From an uncultured delta proteobacterium (lineage in GTDB: Bacteria; Myxococcota; Myxococcia; Myxococcales; Myxococcaceae): a DNA stretch of 28,386 nucleotides. Made by a program: the position numbers and the translations under genes. The stretch is from assembly GCA_963771175.1 (NCBI GenBank), contig CAVYSY010000053.1, forward strand, positions 1 through 28,386, read 5' to 3'. The notes under the pieces are model-generated. The model saw only the letters and a list, made by a program, of their open reading frames with translations. It was not told the DNA's origin and did not search any database. Positions 3,880 through 28,386 of the stretch are shown one piece after another; position 1 is the stretch's first letter, and every line of letters begins with the position of its first letter.

Positions 3880-4878
3880 ATGCTCGTCCGTTCCCTGCTC
3901 CCCCTCGTGCTGCTGCTCTGGGCCGCGCCCGCCGCCGCCCAGGCGACGAAACCCCCCGAGGCCCTCGGCATCGCGATGGAGGGCTACCCCTACCCCCACC
4001 CCGTCCGCTTCCTCCCGCTCTCGCTCCAGGGCCAGGACGTCCGCATGGCCTACATGGACGTGGCTCCCACCGGGAAGCCCAACGGTCGCGCCGTGCTCCT
4101 GCTGCACGGAAAGAACTTCTTCGGCGCCTACTGGCGCGACACCCTCCGCGCCTTGAGCCAGGCCGGCTACCGCGTCGTCGTCCCCGACCAGGTGGGCTTC
4201 GGCAAGTCCTCCAAGCCGGCGCTCGACTACAGCTTCCACACGCTCGCCAGCAACACGAAGCAACTGCTCGACACCCTCGGCATCCAGAAGGTCGTCGTGG
4301 TGGGGCACTCCATGGGCGGCATGCTCGCCACCCGCTTCGCCCGCCTCTTCCCCGACACCACCACGCACCTCGTCCTGGAGAACCCCATCGGCCTCGAGGA
4401 CTACCGCTTCTTCGTGCCCTGGCGCTCCACCGAGGACCTCTACCGCGACCAGCTCGGCGCCACCGAGGAGTCCATGCGCAAGTACCAGAAGACGTACTAC
4501 GTGACGTGGCGCCCCGAGTATGACGAGTACGTCCAGGTGCCCTTCCGCCAGACGCTGAGCGCCGAGTACCCACGGCTCGCCTGGGTGTCCGCCGCCACCG
4601 AGCAGATGATCTACCAGCAGCCCGTGGTCCACGAGTTCCCGCTAGTGCGGGCCCCCGTGCTGCTCGTCATCGGCCAGGAGGACCGCACCGTGGTCGGCCG
4701 CGGGCGCGTGTCCCCCGAGGTACTCCCGAAGCACGGTCAATATCCCGAGCTCGGCAAGCGCACCGCGAAGGCCTTCCCCAACGCCACCCTCGTGGAGCTT
4801 CCCAACGTGGGACACATCCCCCACTTCGAGGCTCCCGAGAAGTGGCACCAGGCGCTGCTCGGGTTTCTCGCGAAGTGA
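3880..4878 (+). CDS. Secreted alpha/beta-fold hydrolase
   Basis: Signal peptide, LLHGKNF, PDQVGFGKS, GHSMGG nucleophile elbow and C-terminal GHIPH. GGAGG RBS upstream. Confidence 0.92.
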   Translation: MLVRSLLPLVLLLWAAPAAAQATKPPEALGIAMEGYPYPHPVRFLPLSLQGQDVRMAYMDVAPTGKPNGRAVLLLHGKNFFGAYWRDTLRALSQAGYRVVVPDQVGFGKSSKPALDYSFHTLASNTKQLLDTLGIQKVVVVGHSMGGMLATRFARLFPDTTTHLVLENPIGLEDYRFFVPWRSTEDLYRDQLGATEESMRKYQKTYYVTWRPEYDEYVQVPFRQTLSAEYPRLAWVSAATEQMIYQQPVVHEFPLVRAPVLLVIGQEDRTVVGRGRVSPEVLPKHGQYPELGKRTAKAFPNATLVELPNVGHIPHFEAPEKWHQALLGFLAK

Positions 4879-12003: not shown

Positions 12004-12052
12004 TAAGGGTGGCGGACCCGTGGCAGTGTGTCGGTGCCGGCGTGTGCCCAAA

Positions 12053-12141
12053 GCAGGCTGCACCGCCTCTCCTCCGGCCCGTCGCACAGCCCTCTTGGCA
12101 CCCGTCAGTGGCCCGCCCCTCCCTCTCCGCACCCGGCCTCA
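12053..12141. repeat. Degenerate ~88-bp direct repeat, copy A
   Basis: First 38 nt match 13047-13084 at 31/38. CCCGTCAGTGGCCC vs CCCGTCAGCGGCCC matches at 13/14. Confidence 0.7.
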
Positions 12142-12974: not shown

Positions 12975-13043
12975 TCAGATCTCGTGGTAGATCTGCTGGA
13001 ACACGGCCACGCGGTACGAGTCGGGGAACACCACCACGTTACC
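12975..13043 (-). pseudogene. 22-codon 3' stub of an unknown gene upstream of the SDR
   Basis: GNVVVFPDSYRVAVFQQIYHEI* with near-perfect GC3 codon usage but no plausible start. It abuts repeat copy B. Confidence 0.45.
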
Positions 13044-13046
13044 CAC

Positions 13047-13133
13047 GCGGGCTGCACGACCTCTCCACCGGCCGGGCGCACTGCTCGGCGCCTCCCGTCA
13101 GCGGCCCTCCTCGGCCCCCTGCACCAGCCCTCA
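13047..13133. repeat. Degenerate ~88-bp direct repeat, copy B
   Basis: Aligns to 12053-12141. Confidence 0.7.
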
Positions 13134-13198
13134 CCATCAACACGCCTCCCATTCGCCCCATGCGTCACCTTCCCCGCTGAAATGGTGCGAAGGGGACC

Positions 13199-13261
13199 TC
13201 ACTTCTGGACGTCCAGAAGTGATGTAGGTTGATGTGTGATGCTTCTGGACGTCCAGAAGTG
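13199..13261. repeat. Two tandem perfect palindromes, centres 40 bp apart
   Basis: TCACTTCTGGACGTCCAGAAGTGA (13199-13222, 24 bp) and CTTCTGGACGTCCAGAAG (13242-13259). Confidence 0.95.
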
Positions 13262-13296
13262 CCCGTAGTACCGGCGGGGGCGGCCGGAGGGGACAG

Positions 13297-13365
13297 TGCG
13301 TGCACCGGACCATGTGGAACACCGATTCCGGGGCAAGTGGAACACTGATTCCGGGCAAGTGGAAC
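13297..13365 (+). mobile_element. Orphan IS21-family-like terminal end
   Basis: Starts TGCGT.., then tandem 22-23 bp units GTGGAACACCGATTCCGGGGCAA / GTGGAACACTGATTCCGGGCAA / GTGGAAC. These resemble the multiple AACACxGATTCC transposase-binding repeats of IS21 ends. No istA/istB follows. Confidence 0.65.
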
Positions 13366-13541
13366 GAACCCTGAAAGTAGGGAGCGGGACGGGCGCGCCC
13401 ACTGCTCACGTCCGGTGAGGGCTCCATCAACGAGCGTGACGCGCGCCCGTGCGTCCTCGCTGATGCCCATCAACCGGCATCACGGCGTTCACAGGGGTGT
13501 CGAGAAGCTTTGAGGTTCGGGGGCCGTGAGCACAGAACCGG

Positions 13542-15146: not shown

Positions 15147-15475
15147 CTCCCCCGCTTCCGTGGACACCGCCGAGGCGAGCGCATCCTCTGGCGGGCTGAC
15201 GACCACGAGAAGGTGACCCAGGTGTTGCTGGCCAAGTGGATGAGCCGCATCCAGCGGCTGGCTGAAGGTGACGGGGGGCATCCACACATCCTCCGCCACA
15301 CCTTCTGCTCCCGGCTGGTGATGGTGGGAGCCCCGGCAAAGGCCATCCAGGAACTGGCCGGGCACCAGCACCTCTCCACCACCCAGCGGTACATGCACCT
15401 GAGTCCGGCGGCCAAATCAGCGGCCATCCGGATGCTGGAGACAAAGGAGAAGGGGGCCACGGGCTGGAGACGAGA
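15147..15475 (+). pseudogene. Tyrosine recombinase/integrase C-terminal remnant
   Basis: HILRHTF (15285-15305), IQELAGH and catalytic Tyr in TTQRYMH (15390-15392). The N-terminal half is replaced by the IS3 remnant. Confidence 0.92.
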
Positions 15476-15515
15476 AAATCTTCAGCCCATAACCCAGTGG
15501 TTTCAACCACTTGAC

Positions 15516-15542
15516 TGGCCGGGGAGACAGGATTTGAACCTG
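15516..15542 (-). mobile_element. att-like tRNA 3' fragment (tRNA-Pro-like), copy 1
   Basis: Reverse complement CAGGTTCAAATCCTGTCTCCCCGGCCA = T-arm + acceptor strand + CCA. It lies directly downstream of the integrase remnant, and no 5' tRNA half is present. Confidence 0.8.
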
Positions 15543-15755
15543 TCTCCCCTGCCCTCGTGTCCTCCGAGCCCTGGCCACCGAGCCGAGCGGCTGGACCGTG
15601 GGAGCAGGGAACTCGGTCAGCTTCACCGCTAGCGCGTCGAAGTCGTGGAAGCCCTTGGAGCCCACCGCTTCGTCAGGTACCTGACTATGCCCAGGCCCGT
15701 GGGTGACGGTAGACTTGACTCCCCCACCACCCTGCTCGTCCGCCAAGAGGAGTAG

Positions 15756-18700
15756 ATGCAGACATGCAGAGAGGCGCAGTGGATCGCCCTCGTTCTCACC
15801 GTGGCCCTGGCCCTGCTGGGAGCGCGCGAGGCCCGGGCAGGAGAGCCGCCCGGCCGCATCGCGCTGCGTGGCTATGGGGCGGACTCCGGCCTACAGAACG
15901 CCGACACCAGCAAGGGCATCCAGGACGGAGAGGGGTTCGTCTGGGTCATCACCGCGGACGCGGCGTACCGCTTCGAGGGCGAGCGCTTCGAACGCTTCGG
16001 GCTGGAGTCCGGCTTGCCCTCGCTGCCCGTCAATGACGTGGCGCTGGATGCCGAGGGCCGGCTGCTCGTGGCGACGACCAGGGGGGTGGCCCGCTGGGAG
16101 GGAGCCCGCTTCACCGCCGTCCCCGCCCCGGGCGTGCCTCCCGAGGTGCAGGGCGTGCGCGTGGACACTCGAGGCCGGCTGCTGCTGTCCACCGCCCAGG
16201 GCTTGTTCGTGGAGGAGGTGCCGGGCCGCTTCACCCTGGCGCCGGGCTGGCCTGGGGGGCCCGCGGGAGCCCTGTGGGTGGATGCGTCCGGCGAGCTTCA
16301 GGTGGCCTCGGGCATGCGCCTGGCGAGCCGCGATGCGCGAGGGCAGTGGCACCCGCGGGAGGTCCCCCTGGCGCGCAGCCCCATCGCCGCCATCGCGCGG
16401 GACGGGCGGGGACGCCTGTGGTTGCGCGGCGACGGGTGGCTGGCCATGCGGCCCCGGGAGGGCGCGGCCTTCGAGGATCGCTCCGAGCTCATCGCGGGCA
16501 CGCTGAGCATCGCGATGCACCTGCGCGTGGGGCAGCGGGGGCAGCTCCTCATCCCCACCACCCGAGGCCTGGTGGAGGTGGAGGGCGAGCGCACGCGCGT
16601 CGTCCAGCTGGGGCGGCCGGGACAGGCCCTGCGGATGCGGGATGCGCTGGAGGAAACGGAGGGCTCGCTCTGGGTGCTGGGACAGGGAGCGCACCGGGCC
16701 CTGGGCCGTGGCCTGTGGAGCCTGCACGACGTCACCACGGGGTTGCCCGCGAGCGCCACCTGGGGGCTCACGCGCGGCGCGGATGGCACGCTGTGGGTGG
16801 GCACCGATGAGGGGCTCTGCGCGCGGCACGCCCGAGGGGTGGAGGGCCGTCCCCGGGCTGAGTGGCTACTCGCTCAAGGCGGTGGTGGTGGACCGGGACG
16901 GCGGGGTCTGGAGCGCGGGCAACCCGGGCGGGCTCCACCACTACGAGCCCCGAACGGGAGCGCTGCGCACGCTGCGGGAGGAGTCCGGCTTCTCCGCGCG
17001 CATCACCTTCAGCCTGCTGCTGGAGCCGGATGGCACCCTGTGGGCCGCCGGCTACGCGGGCCTCTTGCGCGGGGTGCGCCAGGGGGAGCGGTGGACGTTC
17101 GCGCCGGTGCTGCCGCACAGCCCCCGGATGCCATTCGTGGGCCTGGCCAGGGATGGAGCCGGGCGGCTGTGGGCCACGGGGGACGGGCTCTACGTGCGTG
17201 ACGGCGGCGGCTTCCACCGCTTCGGTGTCGGCGATGGGCTGAGGGATGACCGCGTGCGGTACCTGCTGGCCCGCCGCGACGGCCGCATCTGCGTGGCCTA
17301 CGCGGACCCCATCGGACTGAGCTGCTTCACCTACCGGGACGGGCGCCTGGACGAGGGTGTCCACCTGGACCCGACGACGGGGCTGCACAACGGCGTCGTC
17401 TACCAGCTCGGCGAGGACGCCTTCGGCCGTCTCTGGGTGGGCACCGGCGCCGGGGTGGAGCTCTTTGGCGACGGGTGGCACGTCCCCTTCGGGCAGAGCC
17501 AGGGCCTGCCGGGAGACACCCCCAACGGAAACTCCTTCCTGGCCGATGCCGATGGCACCGTGTGGGTGGGGACCACGAGCGGACTCGGCCGCTTCGAGGG
17601 GGCGCGCTACACGGGCCCGATGCCTCCACCCCGTGTGAAGCTGCTGGGCCTCACCTTCGGCCCCCACGCGCGCTCCCAGCTCCCGGACGAGCGGCTCCAG
17701 GTGGAGCATGACGCGTCGATGCTGGACGTCCGGTTCGCTGGGATGGGCCTCCACGAGGCCTCGCCCCTGGCGTACGAGGTGCGACTGGTGGGGCTGGACG
17801 ACTGGCACCCGCCTACGGCCAGCAGGGTGCAGTACGCCGTGCTCCCACCGGGCCGCTACCGCTTCGAGGTGCGTGCGCGCGGCGAGGGGGGCGCCTGGGG
17901 GCCCCCCCTGGGGTTCGACCTGGAAGTGCACCCGCCCTGGTGGGGCACGGTGTGGGGACGGCTCCTGGGCTTGCTGCTGCTGGGGGCCGGAGTGGCGGGC
18001 ATGGTGCGCTGGCGAGGACGTGTCCTTCAGCGCAGGAACGCCGAGTTGGAGGCGCTCGTGCTGGCCCGCACCACCGAGCTCACCCGGGCTCGTGAGCGAG
18101 TGGTCCAGGCGGAGAAGCTCTCGGCCATGGGCCAGCTGCTGGCCCGGCTCGCCCATGAAATCAACAACCCGCTCACCGCCATCCACAACAACCTCACCCC
18201 GGTGGGCGAGTACTTCGGGCAGATGAGCGAGGCCCTGCGGCGCTGCCGCGAGTGGCTCGGCACCCAACCCGAGCAGGCCACGGAGGCCGAGCGGCTGTGG
18301 CGGGAGCAGGACCTGGACTTCGTGCTCCAGGACTTGCCGGAGGCACTGGACTCGATGCGGAGCGCGTCGGAGCGCATCCGGTCCATCCAGACGGACCTGC
18401 GCGCCTTTCTGCGGGGCGAGCGCCCCAGCCTCGTCTCCGCGGACCCCGATCAGGTGGTCCGCGACACGGTCGAGCTGGTCCAGCGCACACTGCCTCCGGG
18501 CGTGCGGTTGGAGGTCCAGTGTGGCGGGGTGCCCCTCGTCCTGCTCCACCCGGGGCAGCTCGGGCAGGTGCTGCACAACCTGCTGCGCAACGCCGTGGAT
18601 GCCCTCGGGACCGAGGGCGAGGTGCGGGTGCACACGGCGGTGAGGGACGGCTGGGTGGAGCTGCGAGTGGCCGACACCGGGCCGGGCGTGCCCGTGGAGC

Positions 18701-18894
18701 TACGCAAGCGCATCTTCGAGCCCTTCTTCACCACGAAGGACGTGGGTCAGGGCTCGGGGCTGGGACTGGCCATCTGCCGGCAGATCATCGAGGAGAATCA
18801 CGGCGGCTCGTTCGAGCTGGACGAGACGGTGGAGCGGGGCGCGTGCTTCGTGGTGCGGCTGCCCCTGTCCCCTGCCCGGAACCAGGTGGCGTGA
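15756..18894 (+). CDS. Sensor histidine kinase with extracytoplasmic beta-propeller (Reg_prop) and Y_Y_Y domains; +1 frameshift near 16818
   Basis: Signal/TM segment, repeated DGxLWVGT blades, LPPGRYRFEVRA, PPWW TM, LAHEINNPL H-box, NLLRNAVDA, DTGPG, IFEPFFTTK and GSGLGL. Removing T16818 joins the two ORFs. Confidence 0.9.
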
Positions 18895-19091
18895 ACCCCC
18901 CCCCGAATCTCTACGAGGCCGGCACGTCCCACTCCACCTGCGATGTGATTCTTCACATCAGCACGCCGGATGCCGAAGCGCTGCGGCTCGTGGAACCGCT
19001 CCTCTGCGCTGAACGCCCCGGCTGCGCGCCGGGGAAAGTGTCAAGAATCCGCGTTGCACACGAGTCCGCATCGGGCGCAACCTGCGCGGCC

Positions 19092-19634
19092 ATGATTCAG
19101 TCCTTCGAGCGCACGACGACCGAGCGGCTCCTGCTCCGCCGCATCCAGGAGAGTGACCTGGACGCGGTGTTCACCCTCCATGGGGACCCGGAGACGAACC
19201 GGTTCAATCCTTCCGGGCCCCTGCGCTCCGTGGACGCCGCGCGCGAACTGCTGGAGCTGTGGCTGGGAGACTGGGCACATCGCGGCATGGGGTACTGGCT
19301 CGTGGAGCGGCGCGACGCGCCCGGGACTGTCGTGGGCTTGGGTGGAGTGCGCCACAAGGAGCTCGAAGGACAGAAGGTGCTCAACCTCGCCTACCGGTTC
19401 AGTCCCCAGTCATGGGGCTCGGGGTATGCGACGGAAGTGGCTCGCGTGTCCCTGGCGCTGGCCCGGAAACACATCCCCGACGTTCCGGTGGTAGCCATCA
19501 TCAACCTGGAGAACGTGCCCTCCCTCCGCGTGGCGGAGCGGCTCGGGATGCGGCGCGACCGAATCATCGACTACGAGGGCGTCGCGAGTGCCGTGTATCT
19601 GGCGGAATACAGAGCTGGGGGAGACAGGATTTGA
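19092..19634 (+). CDS. GNAT N-acetyltransferase (RimJ/RimL type)
   Basis: TERLLLR, WGSGYATE and ENVPSLRVAERLGM. The stop codon lies inside att copy 2. Confidence 0.9.
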   Translation: MIQSFERTTTERLLLRRIQESDLDAVFTLHGDPETNRFNPSGPLRSVDAARELLELWLGDWAHRGMGYWLVERRDAPGTVVGLGGVRHKELEGQKVLNLAYRFSPQSWGSGYATEVARVSLALARKHIPDVPVVAIINLENVPSLRVAERLGMRRDRIIDYEGVASAVYLAEYRAGGDRI

Positions 19635-19637
19635 ACC
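19618..19637 (-). mobile_element. att-like tRNA 3' fragment, copy 2
   Basis: GGGGAGACAGGATTTGAACC is identical to 15521-15540 and in the same orientation. Confidence 0.8.
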
Positions 19638-19640
19638 GGA

Positions 19641-19675
19641 GGGCCCGTGTCTTCAAGTTGGGATGACACGGGCCC
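19641..19675. terminator. Hairpin between convergent genes
   Basis: GGGCCCGTGTC-13 nt-GACACGGGCCC, perfect 11-bp stem. Confidence 0.55.
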
Positions 19676-19703
19676 AGCTGGAGAGGGGCGTTGCAGCTCG
19701 CTC

Positions 19704-20309
19704 TCAATAGGCAACCACGGTGGGCGGGTTCGTGGTGGTGAAGAAGTTGTAGTAGTAGGCGTGGTAGTTGGAGCCGCTGCCCGACTCGGTCAGGCCGTAG
19801 AGCGTGCAGCCCTTGGTGCCATCGACCTGGACGGTGGTGCCGTCGGGCATGAAGAGGTTGCTGAAGTAGACGTTGTAGATGGAGGGCCCACAGGTGAGCA
19901 TCGAGGAGCGTACGGTGCTCAGCGTATCCGGGGCGATCTGCTTGACGTACACGGAGGTGGGTGACGAGCCGCTCGCGGTGTTCTTGACGGTATAGGCGAC
20001 GGCGATGCCCAGATCATTGCCGGTGATGGCGGAGCTGGAGTTATAGGACGAGCCCACGGTGGTGGAGGCGGAGGCGCCGAAGGGGCAGCTACCGGAGGCC
20101 TGCCGGGTGACGACATAGTCATAGATGGGCGGGAAGACGCCAGGCCGCGCCTGGGCGGCGATGGTGAAGGTGCACCCGTTGGAGATGGCGATGGTGCTCA
20201 GCGCGCTGGCGCTGGTGGCGAGCTCTGACTCCTGGGCCTTCGAGTCCGGCCCGCAGGCGGGCAGGAGCAGCAGTGCGGCAAATGGAATGACTTGCTTCAA
20301 GGCATGCAT
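19704..20309 (-). CDS. Ser/Thr-rich beta-strand lipoprotein of unknown function
   Basis: Lipobox LPAC, four further Cys, strong codon bias, GGAGG RBS. Confidence 0.85.
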   Translation of the reverse strand: MHALKQVIPFAALLLLPACGPDSKAQESELATSASALSTIAISNGCTFTIAAQARPGVFPPIYDYVVTRQASGSCPFGASASTTVGSSYNSSSAITGNDLGIAVAYTVKNTASGSSPTSVYVKQIAPDTLSTVRSSMLTCGPSIYNVYFSNLFMPDGTTVQVDGTKGCTLYGLTESGSGSNYHAYYYNFFTTTNPPTVVAY

Positions 20310-20517
20310 GGAGGGACCTCCGGAAGGGGGTGAGCGACTTGCGTGCTGCGCTCATTCCCTAGCATGACCAGAGCCCTGCCTTCAATCCGCACAACCAGGA
20401 AGACGTGTTTCCCTTCTCAGATGTGCCCGGGTGGGCGGTGGTGGGACCCTCCCCCAACCAGCCCCAATCGTTGACACCCCAAGCGCAAAGAAAGCCAGAC
20501 AGCGGTTGATTCACTTG

Positions 20518-20650
20518 TCACGTAACCGGGGCAAGCCCAGACAGGTCGAGAAGGGTGAGCAGGGCTCCCGCATCGAGCGTCTTCTGCTGGGTAATGTCCC
20601 GCACCAGGAAGACCACGCTCTTGTGCTGAGAGGTCAGCAGTTGGAGGGTC
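20518..20650 (-). pseudogene. Possible PAS/PAC-domain fragment
   Basis: VVFLVRDITQQK resembles the PAC-terminal RDITERK motif. No intact gene around it. Confidence 0.35.
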
Positions 20651-20768
20651 AGCGACTCCTCGGGGATTCGTCTTATGCTTTCGCCCTCTTGCCAAGAATC
20701 ATCCGAGCATTCATCGCCATCCATGAAAAACCCGCCGATACCGCCGGGATTTATCGAGGAAGCCGTTC

Positions 20769-21360
20769 ATGGACACGAAGAATCGCGTGAGAGGAAGTGC
20801 TCGGGACTGGGCGAAGGTGCTGCTGGTGGCGCTGCTATCGGGTTGCGGGAGCGAGTCGAAGGCACCACCGCTCGCGCCGTCGTCCGTGCCGCCCGCGGAC
20901 AGCGCGGCGCTGACGTCCACCAGCCTCCAGGCCTGGAGCACATGCCCGTGGGGGAGCACCGACTGCAACCCGTGCGTCCCCAACGTCGTCAGCGCCTTCA
21001 ACGCCCTCTCCCATCATGGCGACATCCTCGGCTTCCACATGGGCGCGGGGGGTCGCGGACATCACCGCGGCATCCCACTGGCAGGGCGTCCAGCGCCTCA
21101 TGGCCGGCGGCGGCAGGTACCTGGCCGTCTCCCGCAGCGGCGCCGGGCAGATGTTCGCCGTCGTGAGGATGGAGGATAAGACCTCGGCCGTGCGCTGGTG
21201 CATCCCCGTGGGGTGGAGGTACCGGCTGTATGCCGACAAGAATCCGTGTGGCGGCAGCTACAAGGACCTGGTCGGCAATGGCGCCGTCCAGACGCTGAGC
21301 AACCTGGGTGACATCGGCTTCAACGACAAGGTGTCCTGCTCGAAATGGCTCCAGCAGTAG
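20769..21360 (+). pseudogene. Lipoprotein with C-terminal beta/gamma-crystallin-like motif; frameshift at G6 (21047-21052), possibly internally deleted
   Basis: Lipobox LSGC and CPWGSTDCNPC. The second frame gives EDKTSAVRWCIPVGWRYRLYAD...LGDIGFNDKVSCSKW. Confidence 0.65.
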
Positions 21361-21462
21361 CGCTCGCGGGCGCTATCGAATCGTGAACCGGGTCTCGTCG
21401 GCCCAGACCGCGTCGATTGAACAGGGAGCCGTCCTCGAGCTGGACGGTTCCATTTTGCTCAG

Positions 21463-21502
21463 TGGCCTATACGGCGTCGAGCAACCCATGGCGCACCGCC
21501 AG
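21463..21502. repeat. 40-bp direct repeat, copy 2
   Basis: TGGCCTATACGGCGTCGAGCAACCCATGGCGCACCGCCAG covers the last 11 codons, the stop and 4 downstream nt of the regulator. Confidence 0.9.
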
Positions 21503-22999
21503 CAAGGCCGCCGCCGCGCGTGTGTCTACCCCGAGCTTCTCGTAGAGATGAATGGTGTGGTGCTGCACGGTGCGGCTGGAGATGTCGAGCTGCTGGGCAA
21601 TCTCCTTGTTCGTCTTGCCCGTGGCGAGCAGCCGCAGCACCTCGAGCTCGCGCTCGGTCAGCGAAGGTGCGGACGCGGAGGTCGACGCACGCCGCTCGCC
21701 CATGGCCGCCAGGACGGCAATGACACAATCTTCATCGAGCGCGCCGCCCTTGACCTGCTCGCGCAGCAGCTTCGCGGTGGCGTCACGGCCCAGCGCGGCG
21801 CGGTGGGGACGCGTCTCCTGCATGCCGCACGCAGCATCGGCGACGGCGAGGAGGCGCGCGGGGCGGACGATGGCCGCCTGCTTCACCCCACGGTGGTAGC
21901 CAGTGCCGTCGAGCCGCTCGTGGTGTGCTCCGGCGATCTTCGCCACTCGCTCGAGCGGAGCGGCCGAGGCCAGCACGCGTTCGGTGAAGTACACGTGTGA
22001 GCGTGCGCGCTCCCGCTCCGTGGGGCGGAAGGGCCGTGGGCGGGTCCATACCGACGTCGCCACGGCCACCTGGCCGAGGTCATGGAGATGGGCGGCGAGC
22101 TTGAGCTCCTCGCGCTCCGCCGCGGGAAGGCCGAGGTTGGCCGCGGCCGCGTCGGCGAGGCGGGCGACAGCGCGTGAGTGGCCGCGCGTGAAGGTCGTCT
22201 GCAGATCGGCGAAGTCGCCGAACGCCTTGGCGATGTCCTCGATGGAGGTCTCGAGCGCGAGCGCCACGGGCATCCGGGCGACCGTGTCGAGGTGGGTGTC
22301 GAGGAAGTCGTCCTCGTCGAGGCGGAGCACCTGGCCGAGAGCGAGCTCGACCAGGCGGGGGTCGAGGCTCGTGCCGGCCCACGCCCGCAGCGTGTCTCGT
22401 GCCAGCTCACGGCCTCCCGCGAGCCAGAAGACGACCGCGACGTGCGCGACCTGGGCCACGCGCCCGACGCGTGTGAGGTCTTCGCCGCCCACCCCCTTCG
22501 GCGAGCCGGCGCCGTCCCATCGCTCGAAGACCTCCTCGAGCGCGAGCGAGACCCGCGAGCCGAGCCGAAGCTGCTCCGACAGTACCCGCGCCGCGCCACA
22601 GGCCTCGCTCGCCCATTCGCCGCGCAGGGTGCGCGCCTGCGTCGCGAGCCGGAGGAGACCAAGGCCCCGGCCCACGAGCTGCGAGTTCGCATGTGCCACG
22701 GCGGAGATGACGTCGCCGACCCGCGACGCATCCGATTGCATCAACCGCGACCGCAGCGCCACATCGTCGGCCGCCAGCGTGGACTCGACGGAGGCGTACG
22801 CCGTGCAGCCAAGGTGGCGGAGCAGCGAGGCAAAGAATGCAGCGGACTGCTCGTCGGCGCCGCAGCCCGCCTCTTGCGCCAGCTGGAGCGCGAAGGCGGC
22901 CGTGAGCAGGCTCTTGTCCTCCTCCAGCCCGTTCGCCAGGTCGAGGATGACGGAGAGGGCCGAGAGGCACTCGAGGGTTGGATTGTTGTGCGCACTCAA
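21467..22999 (-). CDS. Tandem HD(-GYP-like) domain protein with C-terminal LuxR HTH
   Basis: Degenerate first HD domain (LLRHLGC, FERWDGAGSP), second domain HLHDLG...HHERLDGTGYH, and LTERELEVLRLLATGKTNKEIA HTH. Confidence 0.93.
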   Translation of the reverse strand: MSAHNNPTLECLSALSVILDLANGLEEDKSLLTAAFALQLAQEAGCGADEQSAAFFASLLRHLGCTAYASVESTLAADDVALRSRLMQSDASRVGDVISAVAHANSQLVGRGLGLLRLATQARTLRGEWASEACGAARVLSEQLRLGSRVSLALEEVFERWDGAGSPKGVGGEDLTRVGRVAQVAHVAVVFWLAGGRELARDTLRAWAGTSLDPRLVELALGQVLRLDEDDFLDTHLDTVARMPVALALETSIEDIAKAFGDFADLQTTFTRGHSRAVARLADAAAANLGLPAAEREELKLAAHLHDLGQVAVATSVWTRPRPFRPTERERARSHVYFTERVLASAAPLERVAKIAGAHHERLDGTGYHRGVKQAAIVRPARLLAVADAACGMQETRPHRAALGRDATAKLLREQVKGGALDEDCVIAVLAAMGERRASTSASAPSLTERELEVLRLLATGKTNKEIAQQLDISSRTVQHHTIHLYEKLGVDTRAAAALLAVRHGLLDAV

Positions 23000-23078
23000 G
23001 GCTGGCTCGTCGGGCTACCGCCGCGGGCCGCATCTTGGCTGCACGCCTTGATGGACGCCAGCCAGAGGAGGACGAAAC

Positions 23079-23242
23079 TCAGATGTAGGCCGCGATGAAC
23101 TCGTCCCAGTGGGTATTCTGGGCGAAGGCGAGGCGGTCGTAGACGACCGACACCTGGCTGCGCGGAGTGGGGCAATAGATGGTGACTCCCGAGAACTTCT
23201 CGCCGACGGCTGCGAACGCAGTGGTGACGACCGCGGAGGATG
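23079..23242 (-). pseudogene. 3' stub resembling the C-terminus of clostripain-family (C11) peptidases
   Basis: SGVTIYCP...YDRLAFAQNTHWDEFIAAY* matches the GxSIYxP...YxxLxFaxxTxWDEFlxxY tail pattern. No 5' part. Confidence 0.55.
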
Positions 23243-23755
23243 TTACGCGCGCTTCTTCGCGGCCGGCTTGCTCTTCGCGCCGCCCGGTGCCTTCTTCTTC
23301 TCCGGCGGTCGGAGCACGGACTCGTAGTGCTCGATGTACGCTTTCGCGGGTGCACGGCGGATGGCCTCGCCGATCACATCGAGCGGGACATCCTCGAGCT
23401 TCTTGAAGCGCACGCACGCTTTGCCCATGTCGAGCTTCTTGCCCGTCTTCGCCCACGCCTCGCGGAACCACTTCTCGTGCTCCGGCTGGCCGTAGATGCA
23501 CATCAGGTAGACGGCCATGTGGCCCTTCTGCGAGGCCAGCGACGCGAACGGCAGCGGCTGCTTCGGATCGCAGTGGTAGCCGGCGGGGAACACCTCGTGC
23601 GGGACGTAGTAGCCGATCATCCCGTACTGCATGCCCTCCTCGTAGCTCTCGTCGAGGTTCTCGAGGATGACGTTGCGCACGGCGTAGATCGCCGCGCGGC
23701 GGTCCTCCGGAAGCGCGGCGAGGTACTGGTCGACGGTTGTGGCTTTGCTCTGCAT
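23243..23755 (-). CDS. DUF1801 (YdhG-like) domain protein
   Basis: MQSKATTVDQYLAALPEDRR, YGMIGYYVP, LASQK and KLDMGKACVRFKK. Confidence 0.88.
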   Translation of the reverse strand: MQSKATTVDQYLAALPEDRRAAIYAVRNVILENLDESYEEGMQYGMIGYYVPHEVFPAGYHCDPKQPLPFASLASQKGHMAVYLMCIYGQPEHEKWFREAWAKTGKKLDMGKACVRFKKLEDVPLDVIGEAIRRAPAKAYIEHYESVLRPPEKKKAPGGAKSKPAAKKRA

Positions 23756-23837
23756 GGAAGCGAGTGTAGCGCTCCAGGAACAAGCCCACGCCATCCGAAA
23801 AAAGTCCGTGCGGGAGGGGGGGCCGCCGGGCGCGGTC

Positions 23838-23874
23838 TTCAAAAACCTGTCCGACAGTCGGACAGGTTTCTGAA
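23838..23874. repeat. 37-bp near-perfect palindrome (REP-like)
   Basis: TTCAAAAACCTGTCCGAC-A-GTCGGACAGGTTTCTGAA. The 18-bp arms have one mismatch. Confidence 0.9.
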
Positions 23875-23981
23875 ACGCGAGCCCAGGAGGCGGGTGGGTC
23901 TCAGGTCTCATGGCGGGCGTGTGCTGTGCGAACGCACTGGCGCTGCTCGTCACCCCTGAAACGACCTACTTCAGAGGGGTA

Positions 23982-25363
23982 TCACGGCGCGACGAAGAGA
24001 CAGCGGGTGACGGGGACGATGATGTCCGCGAGCACGTACAGGTAGTAGGTCTTGCCGCTCGTCAGCGCGACGGGCTGGCCGCTCGCCGGGAAGCGCTGGG
24101 ACATGCCGGCGGGGATGACGCCGTAGCGCACCGTTCCACTCGCGACGGGAGACCCCTCGGCGGGCACGTCGATGCGCCACAGCGTGCCCTCGGGCAGGTC
24201 GAGGTTCGGCGGCACCGTCGGGGACGTGGCCTCCTGCTCGAGCACGTACACGTAGCGGGCCTTGCCCCCGCGCCAGTTGAGGGTGCCATCGGCGCTGATG
24301 CCTTCACCGTTCGCGCAGGCGGTGGGCCTGTACATGCGCTGGTCATCGAGCGGGCCCGCTCCGTACGGCTGGTTGGCGAAGTCCTCGCGCTTATAGCCGC
24401 GATGGGCGAGCTCGGACTCGAAGAAGCGCGCTATCCGCGCCGCGTCCGTCGTGACGAAGATGGAGTCGTTCGGGCGCTCGGGCGACGCGCGAGAGAAGCC
24501 GTTGTTGTGCTCGGGCCGATACGCGCCGAAGCCGACGGTGTTGATCCACCCGGCCCCCATGGCCAGGCCTCGCGGATAGAAGGAGTTGATGAAGTTGCCC
24601 GGCGACTCGACGAACCAGTTCGAGGGGCCCTTGGGCGCACGCGTCGAGTGACAGCAGACGCAGGCGGTCGACTCGATCTGCGACCTCACCCAGTTGAGCT
24701 CGGAGACGTACGTCGGATCCTTCATGCGCGCGTCGTCCCGCTCCGCGTCCTCCGCGGGAGGCACCGGGTAGTACGGGCGCTGGGTGCGCACGCGGTCGCA
24801 GCTCGCGTACTCGTTGAAGCTGCGGCCGGGCTCGGTGGCGCCGGAGATCATCTCCCACGTGCAGACCTTCCCCCCTTCCGACATCCCGGGCGGCTCGCCC
24901 TGCTTGGGGTCCACACACGTGAGCACCGGCTGCTGGAACGTCGGGAGCCCCGTGTCTCCCATGTCCACCACCTTCCCGCCGCAGACGGGAGACGGGTCGA
25001 ACACGCCGCCACCGAAGAGCTCACACCCGCGTTGCATGGTGCCACACGACTCCGCGTCCACGCCGGGAAAGGTGATGCGCGACCACTTCTCGTCCCCACC
25101 CTCCAGGAAGCAGTAGCCCAGCCGCTCCTCCATGTTGCACGCCGAGCCCAGCTCGACCGTCGAGCCCTGGTCCTTGCAATCCTCCACCGCTTCCTGCTCG
25201 GTCCACTCCCCGACGTAGTCGCGGCACTCCTGGAGATCGCTGAACTTGTTCGTGTAGAGGCAGTGGCCCACCACCTTCTCGGGGACCTGGGAATCTCCTT
25301 CTCCTGGCACGCCACGAGGACGGACAACAGGACGCAACAAGACAGCAACCGCGACGCGGTCAT
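23982..25363 (-). CDS. Cys-rich lipoprotein with a single CxxCH motif; 1-nt deletion near 25289-25291
   Basis: MTASRLLSCCVLLSVLVAC lipobox in one frame and the body in another. CVCCH at 24648-24662. Confidence 0.8.
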
Positions 25364-25394
25364 GGAATGACTCCCGTTTGGAACGACGTTTGGA

Positions 25395-26013
25395 TTACTT
25401 CGCGTAGCCCTTCATGAAGCCGTCGAGGCGCCGCTCGATGAAGACCTCGAGGTCGAGCGGACGACAGCGGCGTCCCTGCAACTGGTGCTGGTGGAAGAGC
25501 GCCATCAGCACCGGTGACAGCAGCGCGAGCGCGGCGACGCGCGCATCCGGCACCGACAACTCGCCACGCGCGTGGAAGATGATGAGCAGTTCTTCGATGG
25601 AGTTGAGCGTGGGCTCGAAGATGGAGGAGATGTAGAGCTGCCCCAGCTTCGGTCACTCATGCCCTCGGCGAAACCGGCGGCGTGCATGCCACCCAGCGCC
25701 CCCGTCCACGCGATGGAGATCTGCTTGAGCAGGTGATGGAAGGCCGGGCGCGCCGGCTGCTCGGCCAGGCTCTTCGCCCAGGCCTGGCGCTCCTGCCCGA
25801 ACTTCATCAGGTGCTCGAAGGCGGCCTGCACCACCCCGCGACGATCGCCGAGTAGTGCCGCAGCGCGCCCGGGTCCACCCCGGCTCCCTCCGCGAGCACC
25901 CGCAGGCTCGGGCGCGCGCCACCCGCCATGAGGATTCGCCGCGCGAGGCTCTCCACGAGCCTCGAACGTGTCAGCTCATGATCCCGGTTGCGCGAGCCCG
26001 ATATCCTTCCCAT
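25395..26013 (-). CDS. TetR/AcrR family regulator, two apparent 1-nt deletions (~25850, ~25652)
   Basis: MGRISG...PSLRVLAEGAGVDPGALRHY(F)GDR HTH. The frames continue VVQAAFEH...EGMSD and (P)KLGQLY...LDGFMKGYAK*. Confidence 0.8.
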
Positions 26014-26264
26014 GGCGAGGTCTCTTATTCCTCTCCATTTCCGGCCGCAACCCTGAGAGAGACAGGATGAGAGGCTTTATATCTCTCCACGGTGAGGAGT
26101 TTTATCTCCCGATGGACATGTCGAACCTACCCATCAGCGAGCTCCACTCGGCTCGGTGTGTCCGGATCCGCACAGCCCCCCTGCCCCCGCAGCGCATTGC
26201 CAAAGGGCGCGAGAATCCGGAGCCTGTCGCACAGGGCACGAGCGCCGTGCCCACCCGCGCGACC

Positions 26265-27835
26265 ATGGCCGACATCGTCCTCATCAACCCGCGGTTCGAG
26301 GTCTCGTTCTGGGGCCTGGAGCACGCCCTGCCGCTCCTCGGCAAGCGGGCCAACCTGCCGGTCGCCTGCCTGCCGCTGCTGGCCGCGCTCACGCCCGCCG
26401 AGCACCCGGTCACGCTGATCGACGAGAACGTCGAGCCGATCGACTTCGACGCGCTGCCGCGCGCCGACATCGTCGGCGTGACCGGCATGAGCGTGCAGCG
26501 CCTGCGGATGCGGGAGATCCTCACCGAGCTCAAGCGCGCGCGGCGCCTTCACGGTCGTCGGCGGCCCGTGGGTCACGGTGCAGGAGGACTACTTCGACGA
26601 CCTGGCCGACGTGATCTTCGTCGGCGAGGCCGAGGAGACCTGGCCGCAGTTCCTCGCGCGAGTGGGCGCGAGGGGCGCCACGCCGGCGCTACGAGCAGGC
26701 CGAGAAGACCGACATGACCACGCGTGCCGACGCCGCGCTTCGACCTGCTCAAGATGCAGCACTACCTGTTCGGCAGCGCTGCAGTTCTCGCGCGGCTGCC
26801 CGTTCCAGTGCGAGTTCTGCGACATCATCGTCACCTTCGGCCGCCGGCCGCGGCTCAAGACAGCCGCGCAGGTGATCGCCGAGCTGGAGGCGCTGCGCGC
26901 CCGGGGCATGCGCCACGTCTTCATCGTCGACGACAACCTGATCGGCAACAAGAAGGCGATCAAGGCGCTGCTGCGCGAGGTGGTCGCCTGGCAGAAGCGG
27001 CAGCGGCTATCCGCTTCACCTTCTTCACCGAGGCGTCGCTCGACCTGGCCGACGACGCCGGAGCTGATGCAGCTGATGGTCGAGGCGAACATCGTCAGCG
27101 TCTTCATCGGCATCGAGAGCCCCAACGAGGAGTCGCTGCGCGAGACGAAGAAGTTCCAGAACGTGCGCCCGCGGCGGGCACGCTGCTCTCGAGCGGGTCC
27201 ACCGCATCCAGGACGCCGGCCTGGAGGTCTGGTGCGGCATGATCCTGGGCTTCGACAGACGACGCCCGACGTCTTCGACGCGCCAGCTCGAGTTCCTCCG
27301 CGAGGCGCGGATCGCGCACGCGATGGTCGGCATGCTCTCCGCGATCCCCAAGACGCCGCTGCACGCCCGGCTGGCGACGCGAGGGCCGGCTCGACCCGGC
27401 GGACGAGCCCGAGTTCGGCACCAACGTCATCCCGCTAGCGGATGAGCCGCGAGGAGCTGCGCGACGGCTACCGTGCGGCTGATGCAGGAGCTCTACGGGC
27501 CCGAGGCCTACTTCGAGCGGGTGGAGTCGCTGTTCCTGCGGGGCAGGCTGGCCTTCGGGCGCGGCCGCGAGCGCTACTGGCGGGAGCACCCGCTGCGCCG
27601 CGGTGCGAGCCAGGCGATGAATCTCGCCACCGCCGCGGTGCTGAGCGGCCGGCTCTTGCGCAACCTCCCGAGCGCCGAACTGCGGCGCGAGTACGTCTGG
27701 CGCCTCGCCCGCGCCCTGAGGGAGCGCCCGGATTCCGAGCTTGCGCTCGTCTACCTGATCAAGTGCGCCTGCCACTACCACTACAGCCAGCTGACCCGGC
27801 AGATGCGCCACGGACAGGTGCGCAACTCGTTCTGA
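26265..27835 (+). CDS. B12-binding radical SAM protein (DUF4070-type), multiply frameshifted
   Basis: MADIVLINPRF...LIDENVE...VGVTGM, GEAEETW, FSRGCPFQCEFCD (CxxxCxxC), FIVDDNLIG and VFIGIESP, spread across several frames. Confidence 0.88.
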
Positions 27836-27990
27836 CACCTGCGAGCGCCCGCTTCCACGCTCGCCTTCCTCCCTGCCCGCTGCCTGCCCTGGCGGGACTT
27901 CGCGCGCTCGCCCTTCTCGCCCCCGCGTACGACGTGCCTGCCAGTTCGAGGGAGCGGACAGACCTTTGGGGCTACTGCGGAGGCTTGAGC

Positions 27991-28386
27991 ATGCAAGATA
28001 TCCATGATGGCGAAGGGGCACACCGCAGGGCAGGCCGCGGGCCCGGGTTCGAAATCTCGAGGGCAGGAGCCTGCCTACGTCATCTGGTTCGACGCGCTCA
28101 CCCGGTAAGGACGTGCCCATCGCGGGTGGCAAGGGGGCCAACCTGGCGAGACGACACGGGCGGGCCTGCCCGTCCCCCGTGGCTTCGTCATCACCGCGGC
28201 CGCCTTCCAGAAGGGCATCGAGCCGAGGCGCAGAGCCAGGTGTCCGAAATCTGGAAGCGCATCGACCCGGACAACCTCGAGTCGCTCGCCGCTCACTCCA
28301 AGCAACTGAAGGAACTCATCCGCGGGCTCACGCTCCCCGAGGAGCTGCGCAAGCCCCTGCTCGACGCCTACCACCAGTTGGGCGCG
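27991..28386 (+). CDS. PEP synthase/PPDK N-terminal domain (partial, frameshifted, runs off window)
   Basis: VIWFDAL..KDVPIAGGKGANLG..AGLPVPRGFVIT across frames. GGAGG precedes ATG 27991. Confidence 0.8.
   Translation, partial: MQDIHDGEGAHRRAGRGPGFEISRAGACLRHLVRRAHPVRTCPSRVARGPTWRDDTGGPARPPWLRHHRGRLPEGHRAEAQSQVSEIWKRIDPDNLESLAAHSKQLKELIRGLTLPEELRKPLLDAYHQLGA

Follow-up and report, generated by a model that had tools for sequence, protein, structure and literature searches.

Integrating mobile elements have been described in several forms, some of which are close to the locus examined here. Islander-type islands sit at tRNA genes together with a displaced 3′ fragment of the tRNA gene (tDNA), one class of their phage-side attachment sites (attP) lies in the T-stem region, and tandem arrays at tRNA genes also occur (PMC4383910). 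The myxophage Mx8 carries its attP inside the int coding sequence, and attB1 and attB2 are named as its sites (PMC6070905, PMC4383910). Finally, for ICEs (integrative and conjugative elements) and IMEs (integrative and mobilizable elements), such as Streptococcus thermophilus ICESt1/3, the term cis-mobilizable element (CIME) denotes a decayed, integrase-less element that has retained its attachment (att) sites and that, once accreted, can be mobilized in cis (PMC5704250). Here, we analyze a stretch of 28,386 nucleotides from an uncultured myxobacterium (hereafter, the window), in which one 20-nt sequence resembling the 3′ end of a proline tRNA occurs twice, 4.1 kb apart. The window is an entire contig (C53) of an assembly of 9.8 Mb in 58 contigs, with a completeness of 81.7% and a contamination of 4.5%. 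A preliminary description made from the sequence had proposed that the two copies delimit an integrase-less cassette with a kinase and a GNAT acetyltransferase gene, left by serial integration at a tRNA att site.

Our analysis leads to a different reading. We think it rather probable that the two 20-mers are independent att-core scars of elements whose integrases target the T-loop of tRNA-Pro(CGG), that the island in question lies to the left of the first copy, and that the interval between the copies is a patchwork and not a cassette. Exactly two occurrences of the 20-mer, GGGGAGACAGGATTTGAACC, are present in the window, namely, 15521-15540 (copy 1) and 19618-19637 (copy 2), both on the + strand, compared with a mean of 0.00 occurrences over 100 shuffles. 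No additional match was present in the window at ≤3 mismatches, and a Hamming scan extended to ≤5 mismatches gave no degenerate third copy. The sole other exact occurrence in the 58-contig genome is the 3′ end (acceptor/T-arm) of tRNA-Pro(CGG), the only gene of its kind in the genome, which sits on contig C11 and not on C53; ARAGORN finds zero tRNA genes in the 28.4-kb window. Copy 1 matches this tRNA over 23 exact bases (15520-15542) and, beyond one mismatch, over the TGG that corresponds to the CCA end, giving 27 nt in total (15516-15542). Copy 2 matches over 20 bases only, all of them exact. These identities support the derivation of both copies from the 3′ end of tRNA-Pro(CGG), which is the att core of T-loop-class integrases. 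What the preliminary description had observed at this level, namely, two identical 20-mers of tRNA-Pro T-arm/acceptor origin, no full tRNA in the window, and a tyrosine-integrase remnant directly before copy 1, is confirmed.

The integrase remnant is of the phage type and retains the catalytic H-x-x-R...Y region and the tail, with the N-terminal two thirds gone. We found no close full-length copy of it in its own genome, and across the other 17 genus genomes, the top match is another remnant (G010:C737, 80% identity), with the rest at ≤62%. In a large protein collection, 1947 longer proteins match the fragment at E ≤ 1e-10; the best full-length relative, P0004 (391 aa, PF14659 + PF00589), shares 70% identity with it over 87% of the fragment. 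Among 79 loci with P0004 relatives, 10 were selected as myxobacterial and scanned for tRNA genes. The integrase or its remnant adjoins a convergent tRNA-Pro(CGG) gene in half of these (L108, L109, L111, L112, and L164, which come from two Myxococcaceae metagenome-assembled genomes, Corallococcus llansteffanensis, a record titled Comamonas sp. KCTC 72670, and Myxococcus eversor), while tRNA-Asp adjoins in two others, a tmRNA gene in one, and none in the last two. Moreover, the reading frame of the integrase extends into the att core in L108, L109, L111, and L112, where it ends ...RGDRI-stop, the TGA being the T-loop TGA of the core. Since the frames of these relatives end in the core, the integrase of the window is tied to the T-loop site of tRNA-Pro(CGG). 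In the window, the tail is frameshifted, and the same RGDRI-stop, matching the end of P0004, is readable across the core one frame over.

Two further arrangements were seen. A Pyxidicoccus fallax record (L110, ~4090-4300) contains a full-length integrase of the P0004 family whose end lies in the core, and the core is followed by a non-tRNA arm; in this isolate genome, the site could be a tandem junction or an attP that has not recombined. Islands of a second class, also at this tRNA-Pro, have longer half-tRNA repeats that reach the anticodon arm (G001:C1:11237154/11245249; G003:C23:708276/714909/728848; G006:C1:2129993/2143438/2149410; G017:C2:8682784/8733944), and integrases of 400-460 aa, or remnants of them, adjoin some of these repeats.

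The extent of the core agrees between the window and its relatives, for which we used a genus set of 18 genomes (the window's own and 17 others) and an order-level set of 120 genomes from 46 other genera. In at least 12 loci, the tRNA identity stops after ...GAACC and the arms vary beyond this point; copy 2 ends at the same base. The block of identity begins at the tRNA 3′ end and does not reach beyond the T-loop, as in a T-loop-class att site of tRNA-Pro(CGG), and further copies of the 20-mer in the genus (≤1 mismatch) have different right arms. At tRNA-Pro, the core commonly forms serial arrays in this genus, as seen in G003, G006, G009, G013, and G014. In G013, the sequence at tRNA-Pro reads downstream flank, core, “type ii” arm, then, after 8.5 kb, flank, core, and tRNA body. 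The type ii arm is a conserved stretch of ~90 nt with long internal inverted repeats that lies 3′ of the core at nine loci (L084, L085, L087, L092, L093, L094, L095, L099, and L058), and it is probably the integrase-distal arm of this element family. As a candidate known RNA or tRNA-like gene, it was rejected, with 0 Rfam matches at E ≤ 1 in six loci and no ARAGORN gene.

The order of parts in the islands of relatives establishes their polarity. In G010:C372, a core and type ii arm are followed by PAAR-toxin cargo and then by an integrase remnant, P arm, palindrome, and crotonase gene; islands in G014:C23 and G015 have the same order, at crotonase and at gene Y (a large peptidase-like gene) loci. 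The rule is that the integrase and P arm lie at the right end of the island and that the fixed side of the target follows the core. Given this polarity, copy 1 represents the right end of an island on its left. Islands without an integrase between cores also exist in relatives (G013, G014, and G015); in those of G013 and G014, no integrase was found among the seven open reading frames (ORFs) scanned. As to cargo, the island of G010 (L027, C372:2536-4224) encodes a Tox-PAAR-like protein (PF13665, E 1e-28) next to a small neighboring ORF, and polymorphic-toxin and immunity genes seem to be typical cargo of palindrome-associated islands.

The preliminary description missed that copy 1 is one half of a perfect palindrome. 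Its 20-mer forms the left arm and center of an 11-7-11 structure (Table 1), which gives a stable 11-bp hairpin. When searched as a 28-mer at ≤3 mismatches, the palindrome was found at 68 places in 17 of the 18 genus genomes, the right arm being of the tRNA type at 24 places and palindromic at 44 (16 of the 18 genomes). With exact arms and any center, it was found in 0 of the 120 genomes from other genera of the order. In the 27 palindromic copies at fetched loci, 18 of 25 mismatches fall in the seven central positions (binomial P of 1e-6 versus a uniform spread), a bias to be read in the light of the preselection at ≤3 mismatches, which disfavors paired changes in the arms. The 29-nt mimics have conserved arms identical to the 3′ strand of the acceptor/T-stem and a variable 7-nt center. 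Read on the minus strand, the palindrome mimics an acceptor-stem/T-arm minihelix followed by GCCA, and it is always situated 1-30 nt beyond the stop of a convergent gene. The short inverted repeat noted earlier before copy 1 (AGTGGTT-tc-AACCACT, 15496-15511) is real and is kept beside the core at several genus loci (L056, L060, L061, L062, and L093); together with the palindrome, it folds at -18.3 kcal/mol (DNA parameters). Its supposed counterpart before copy 2, TGTAT-8 nt-ATACA, exists but is not an att feature, since it is composed of conserved coding sequence of the GNAT gene in its first half and derives from the mutated stop-codon region in its second.

An all-versus-all comparison of 19 palindrome loci separates the two flanks sharply. 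The right flanks are orthologous and fall into groups at gene Y (8 loci, 83-95% identity), at the crotonase gene (4 loci, 86-94%, and additionally one remnant of 46-77 nt), and at a third gene (3 loci, 90-92%). Among the left flanks, a single pair shares sequence, an 81-nt integrase/P-arm piece. With orthologous sequence on its right and unrelated sequence on its left, the palindrome marks a boundary between conserved and hypervariable DNA, as a tRNA target does. Judging from these flank patterns, the palindrome may have served as a secondary attB.

The events at the window can then be proposed as follows. Tyrosine-integrase elements would recombine in the T-loop of tRNA-Pro(CGG), leaving core scars. 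Copy 1 would be the integrase-proximal junction (int, P arm, and core) of a decayed island at ~13.1-15.5 kb, and this island would have recombined with the palindromic tRNA-Pro acceptor/T-arm mimic behind gene Y, not with a tRNA gene. Gene Y, of which ~90 nt are left, would be the chromosomal side of copy 1. Between the copies, the 4.1 kb would be backbone or later patchwork, comprising the Y remnant, a frameshifted kinase gene, and a GNAT gene without its stop. A wider form of this proposal, which we put forward only tentatively and regard as less than likely, is that portable mimics of tRNA-Pro form a network private to the genus and lie just behind several unrelated conserved genes, that these act as surrogate attB sites for tRNA-Pro integrases and accumulate islands, integrase-less ones among them, away from the tRNA, and that the window is a heavily decayed surrogate locus in which copy 2 is a half-site from recombination with a non-canonical partner.

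The interval between the copies consists of pieces with separate histories. Next to the palindrome lies the remnant of gene Y, which has 77-80% identity to Y-gene 3′ ends (own contig C17 and four relatives) and has lost the stop-codon region; the full-length gene adjoins the same palindrome in eight relatives. A perfect 14-nt palindrome, GTCAGGTACCTGAC, is located at 15672-15685, 6 nt beyond the end of the Y homology. What had been called a kinase is a frameshifted sensor histidine kinase, with one extra base at 16818/16819 that is absent both from the G002 ortholog (92%) and from contigs of all four sequencing runs in which we followed strain variation. Homology to the G002 ortholog is limited to 15734-18894, with both flanks different. 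In the GNAT gene, the native stop TAG of relatives is TAC at 19608-19610, and the frame continues for eight codons to a TGA inside copy 2. Its homologs comprise an own-genome paralog (94%, C50:99442-100001 versus 19045-19604) and genes in six relatives (88-91%). The kinase, GNAT, and Y pieces each occur in other contexts elsewhere, and the 4.1-kb interval is a mosaic. As a separate observation, the GNAT homology (19045-~19610; L028-L033) begins ~45 nt ahead of the ATG, reaches as far as the stop codon, and has a different neighborhood in each of seven genomes, from which the gene appears to move between contexts.

Variation among strains was read from the assembled contigs of the four runs, all runs compared covering ≤0.41 of the sampled words of the stretch, and the joins reported are those among the matches listed. 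In an X20 contig (99% over 15576-18186), position 13112 is linked to 15576 through 2 filler bases; the kinase and the Y remnant are retained, and both low-GC ORFs, copy 1, and the remnant of the integrase are missing. As this joint cuts a dispersed repeat that runs to ~13166 in the window, it looks like an illegitimate deletion and not an excision. A second X20 contig departs from the window sequence at the kinase stop (18894), an X2 contig begins to match at 15667, the end of the Y remnant, and a second X2 contig covers copy 2 (19564-20142) at ~98%. In run X1, depth is low over 19141-19674, a value from which we draw nothing, as it was obtained from contigs, among the matches listed, for a gene that has paralogs. 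The preliminary description had expected strain breakpoints to coincide with the 20-mers and had offered their failure to do so as grounds for rejection. None of the breakpoints found (13112|15576, 15667, 15734, 18894, 19045, ~19610, and 19564) is on a 20-mer, and nearest to copy 2, the break simply marks where the GNAT coding sequence ends, which is also the case in relatives lacking a core there. An X20 join from 19004 back to 15518 was considered as a circle junction and not counted, its short side being 32 letters, its middle unresolved, and the contig ~93% identical to the P arm-palindrome family. Taken together, the proposal of serial integration is supported in part, in that both copies derive from the tRNA-Pro(CGG) 3′ end and serial arrays occur in the genus, but island polarity and the mosaic interval speak against the two copies as the bounds of a single cassette.

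As a core, copy 2 is an orphan. Its flanks have no att-arm homology, as a 110-nt query across it matched the genus only via the 20-mer. On the right, its identity breaks off sharply at ...GAACC, in agreement with a T-loop-class junction and an element arm beyond it, and we favor the order flank, core, and P′ arm. The simplest account of copy 2 would place it at the left junction of another accessory segment without an integrase, at 19.6-23.2 kb on its right. Across the other 17 genus genomes, the corresponding 3.6 kb (19638-23245) gave zero DNA matches at E ≤ 1e-30. The first gene of this segment encodes a predicted lipoprotein with no family match; candidate relatives in metagenome contigs amounted to just two 19-residue, chance-like matches and were rejected. 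A hairpin between copy 2 and this gene is probably the terminator of the latter.

Several points weigh against our reading of the two copies. There is no intact integrase copy and no second core left of 13.1 kb, and the left end of the island is not demonstrable; the X20 joint, with its filler bases and cut repeat, does not set the island ends either. The Y remnant is more diverged (77-80%) than Y genes are among themselves (83-95%) and could be an element-borne P′ mimic, in which case 15192-15666 would be an unrecombined attP. Core-flanked integrase-less islands exist in relatives, and an element without an integrase would not be implausible as such. For copy 2, neither flank leads on into an att arm that is known, which leaves its origin without a detailed explanation. 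Lastly, with 82% completeness, 4.5% contamination, and 94% near-duplicates elsewhere in the assembly, the contig may be that of a second strain.

These points give some room to other explanations, one of which takes 15192-15666 as a stranded fossil of an unrecombined attP (integrase 3′ end, P arm, palindromic core, and a P′ arm that mimics the 3′ end of Y) from an element targeting the palindrome of the Y locus, with the kinase and GNAT genes as unrelated neighbors. Besides the divergence of the Y piece and the deletion of its stop-codon region, this account can draw on the far island junction of G014:C23, where the palindrome is joined to a 46-77-nt copy of the crotonase 3′ end, so that elements can carry mimics of gene ends. 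However, the cognate P′ arm appears to be of type ii, as L093 has an identical P arm followed by a type ii arm, and the element would need another route of entry into the chromosome; we regard this explanation as unlikely. The cassette as first proposed, restated as an integrase-less CIME-like element within a tandem array, with two att cores and excisable by an integrase in trans, has in its favor the two exact cores in direct orientation, the serial tRNA-Pro arrays of five relatives, the integrase-less islands of three, and the precedent of CIMEs and tandem accretion in the literature (PMC5704250). Yet the sequence that follows copy 1 is a conserved chromosomal arm in eight relatives and not a P′ arm, and copy 2 is preceded by the coding end of a GNAT gene with no P-arm or tRNA-flank features. 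Likewise, the modules of the interval are found apart from one another (in G002, in contigs of X20 and X2, and at seven GNAT loci), zero breakpoints fall on a 20-mer, the contig has no tRNA gene, and, as weak evidence, no join of 15540 to 19618 is among those listed for the contigs of the four runs. We consider such an element quite unlikely.

It is also conceivable that the palindromes, and perhaps copy 2, are tRNA-like minihelix hairpins acting as terminators or RNA 3′-end elements, with the adjacency to integrases secondary. Their constant position just past the stop of a convergent gene, the stable 11-bp stem, and the minus-strand minihelix with its GCCA would all suit this role, but most mismatches fall in the loop, so that T-loop identity is not conserved (subject to the same ascertainment bias). 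Furthermore, left flanks are unrelated except in one pair, which a terminator does not explain. Integrase P arms adjoin the palindrome in at least four loci, the palindrome is confined to one genus, and copy 2 has no second arm, and we consider this role very improbable. An artefact of assembly, either a contig chimera formed at short repeats or a mixture of two strains, in which the copies were never on one molecule, would be in keeping with the completeness and contamination values, with the 94% copies of 23978-28385 (C45) and of the GNAT gene (C50), and with a kinase frameshift seen in none of the four runs. Assembler word sizes are, however, usually longer than a 20-nt repeat. In addition, an independent X2 contig spans copy 2 and both its flanks, an X20 contig spans 15576-18186, and the arrangements integrase-P arm-palindrome and palindrome-spacer-Y are each present in other genomes, and we give this possibility hardly any weight. 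Our preferred reading, with two independent scars and an island to the left of copy 1, is the one that we carry forward.

Table 1. Features of the window around the two tRNA-derived 20-mers, in order of position
Feature	Position	Strand	Remarks
MITE-like (miniature inverted-repeat transposable element-like) short-repeat cluster	13040-13395 (13040-13166, 13183-13261, 13297-13395)		left edge of low-GC segment
Low-GC ORF, 205 aa	13542-14159	-	island cargo; family not assigned
Low-GC ORF, 182 aa	14263-14811	-	candidate Imm26/DUF8309-type immunity protein, as a lead only
rve-type (DDE) transposase fragment, 43 aa	14970-15098	-	PF00665 rve, E 1.1e-8, profile positions 70-102 of 102
Tyrosine integrase, 3′ third	15180-15520	+	PF00589 profile positions 109-169 of 172, E 1.4e-13
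P-arm hairpin AGTGGTTTCAACCACT	15496-15511		between integrase tail and core
Copy 1	15516-15549		tRNA identity 15516-15542; perfect palindrome GGGGAGACAGG-ATTTGAA-CCTGTCTCCCC at 15521-15549
Gene Y remnant	15550-15666	-	27-nt spacer and ~90 nt of the 3′ end of a large peptidase-like gene
Sensor histidine kinase	15756-18894	+	Pfam Reg_prop / Y_Y_Y / HisKA / HATPase_c; two overlapping frames
GNAT acetyltransferase	19092-19634	+	PF13302, E 9e-27
Copy 2	19618-19637		orphan 20-nt core: left arm, 7-nt T-loop, CC
Hairpin with 11-bp stem	19641-19675		-15.7 kcal/mol (DNA parameters); 28 nt past the stop of the 19704-20309 ORF
Predicted lipoprotein, 201 aa	19704-20309	-	signal-peptide-like N-terminus followed by Cys, by eye

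The segment to the left of copy 1 stands out by its composition, with a GC content of 0.56-0.62 over 13-15 kb versus ~0.68 elsewhere. Neither of its two low-GC ORFs has a hidden Markov model match in Pfam or NCBIfam, and the 182-aa ORF has an ESM Atlas feature score of 0.96 to DUF8309/Imm26 clusters. The transposase fragment, which we take from its motif to be of the IS3 family, is multi-copy among relatives (90-97%). Each repeat of the cluster at the left edge has many copies in its own genome at 77-98% identity and copies in relatives too. More broadly, dispersed short repeats of 65-190 nt, which are highly multi-copy both in the own genome and across the genus (77-98%), were observed at 12036-12140, at the three positions of this cluster, and at 23790-23978; located at module boundaries, they may drive rearrangements in the window.

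At the right end of the window, 23978-28385 has a 94% near-duplicate in the same assembly (C45:186991-191368) and is single copy in each relative; this pair and that of the GNAT gene on C50 represent either a recent segmental duplication or a second strain within the assembly. The contig as a whole was considered as a phage or plasmid carrying an attP, which we dropped, as its ends have no terminal overlap (it is not circular) and its gene content is chromosomal. Elsewhere in the genome, 13 tRNA genes, Pro(GGG)- and Pro(CGG)-like genes among them, lie within ~1.3 kb (L005, C26:379188-382207), and this cluster may be the tRNA array of a mobile element.

Compared with described systems, the window holds decayed debris of tRNA-targeted islands, which is of a known kind. 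The preliminary description had likened the interval to an integron-like array on tRNA-derived sites, which, if true, would be a new gene-capture system, but the evidence does not support this. The integrase remnant scores 30.7 bits against an integron-integrase model with a cut-off of 265, its relatives are of the phage type (PF14659 + PF00589), the repeats are tRNA-derived, and no attC, attI, or IntI was seen, attC-like structure having been sought only in the repeats. The category to which the cassette idea belongs is the CIME, represented among relatives by the integrase-less islands between cores. A CIME has attL and attR of one parental element, whereas the window has the Y side after copy 1 and the GNAT end before copy 2, with no homology to P or P′ arms seen at either position. 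The cassette would thus fall under known tandem accretion and CIMEs and would not be categorically new even if true. Altogether, the earlier observation is confirmed, its interpretation is supported in part, and the cassette is mostly not supported.

The by-products of the analysis are of some value. The more interesting one is the genus-restricted palindromic mimic of a tRNA arm, found at boundaries between conserved and variable DNA at no fewer than three loci. Inverted arms in an 11-7-11 arrangement are typical of core sites of tyrosine recombinases, for example, dif and pdif, including the pdif modules of Acinetobacter plasmids. Copy 1 shares this architecture, and its arms are conserved and its center variable in the 27 copies; the differences are that the recombinase here is of the phage type (PF14659 + PF00589) and not XerC/D, that copy 2 has a single arm, and that the window has no module between two full sites. 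Should the mimics function as secondary attB, this would account for the spread of elements specific to a tRNA into hot spots outside tRNA genes.

The likeness to Islander-type islands lies in the repetition of the tRNA 3′ end from the CCA through the T-loop, displaced in the same orientation in both copies (23 nt and 20 nt exact, both +), in the adjoining tyrosine integrase, and in tandem arrays at the same tRNA in relatives. The window differs in that its array has no terminal tRNA, and no intact target tRNA is present at either end of the 28.4-kb contig; in that the integrase is a 3′ remnant left of copy 1, outside 15541-19617; and in that copy 1 is joined to a non-tRNA palindrome. The other by-products are the polarity rule for islands of the tRNA-Pro(CGG) integrase family and this myxobacterial family itself, which targets the T-loop and whose gene ends inside the att core. 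In this last respect, it resembles Mx8: in the relatives L108, L109, L111, and L112, the int frame stops in the att core, so that recombination alters the int 3′ end. The target here is the T-loop of tRNA-Pro(CGG), however, and just the last 5-6 codons overlap the core.

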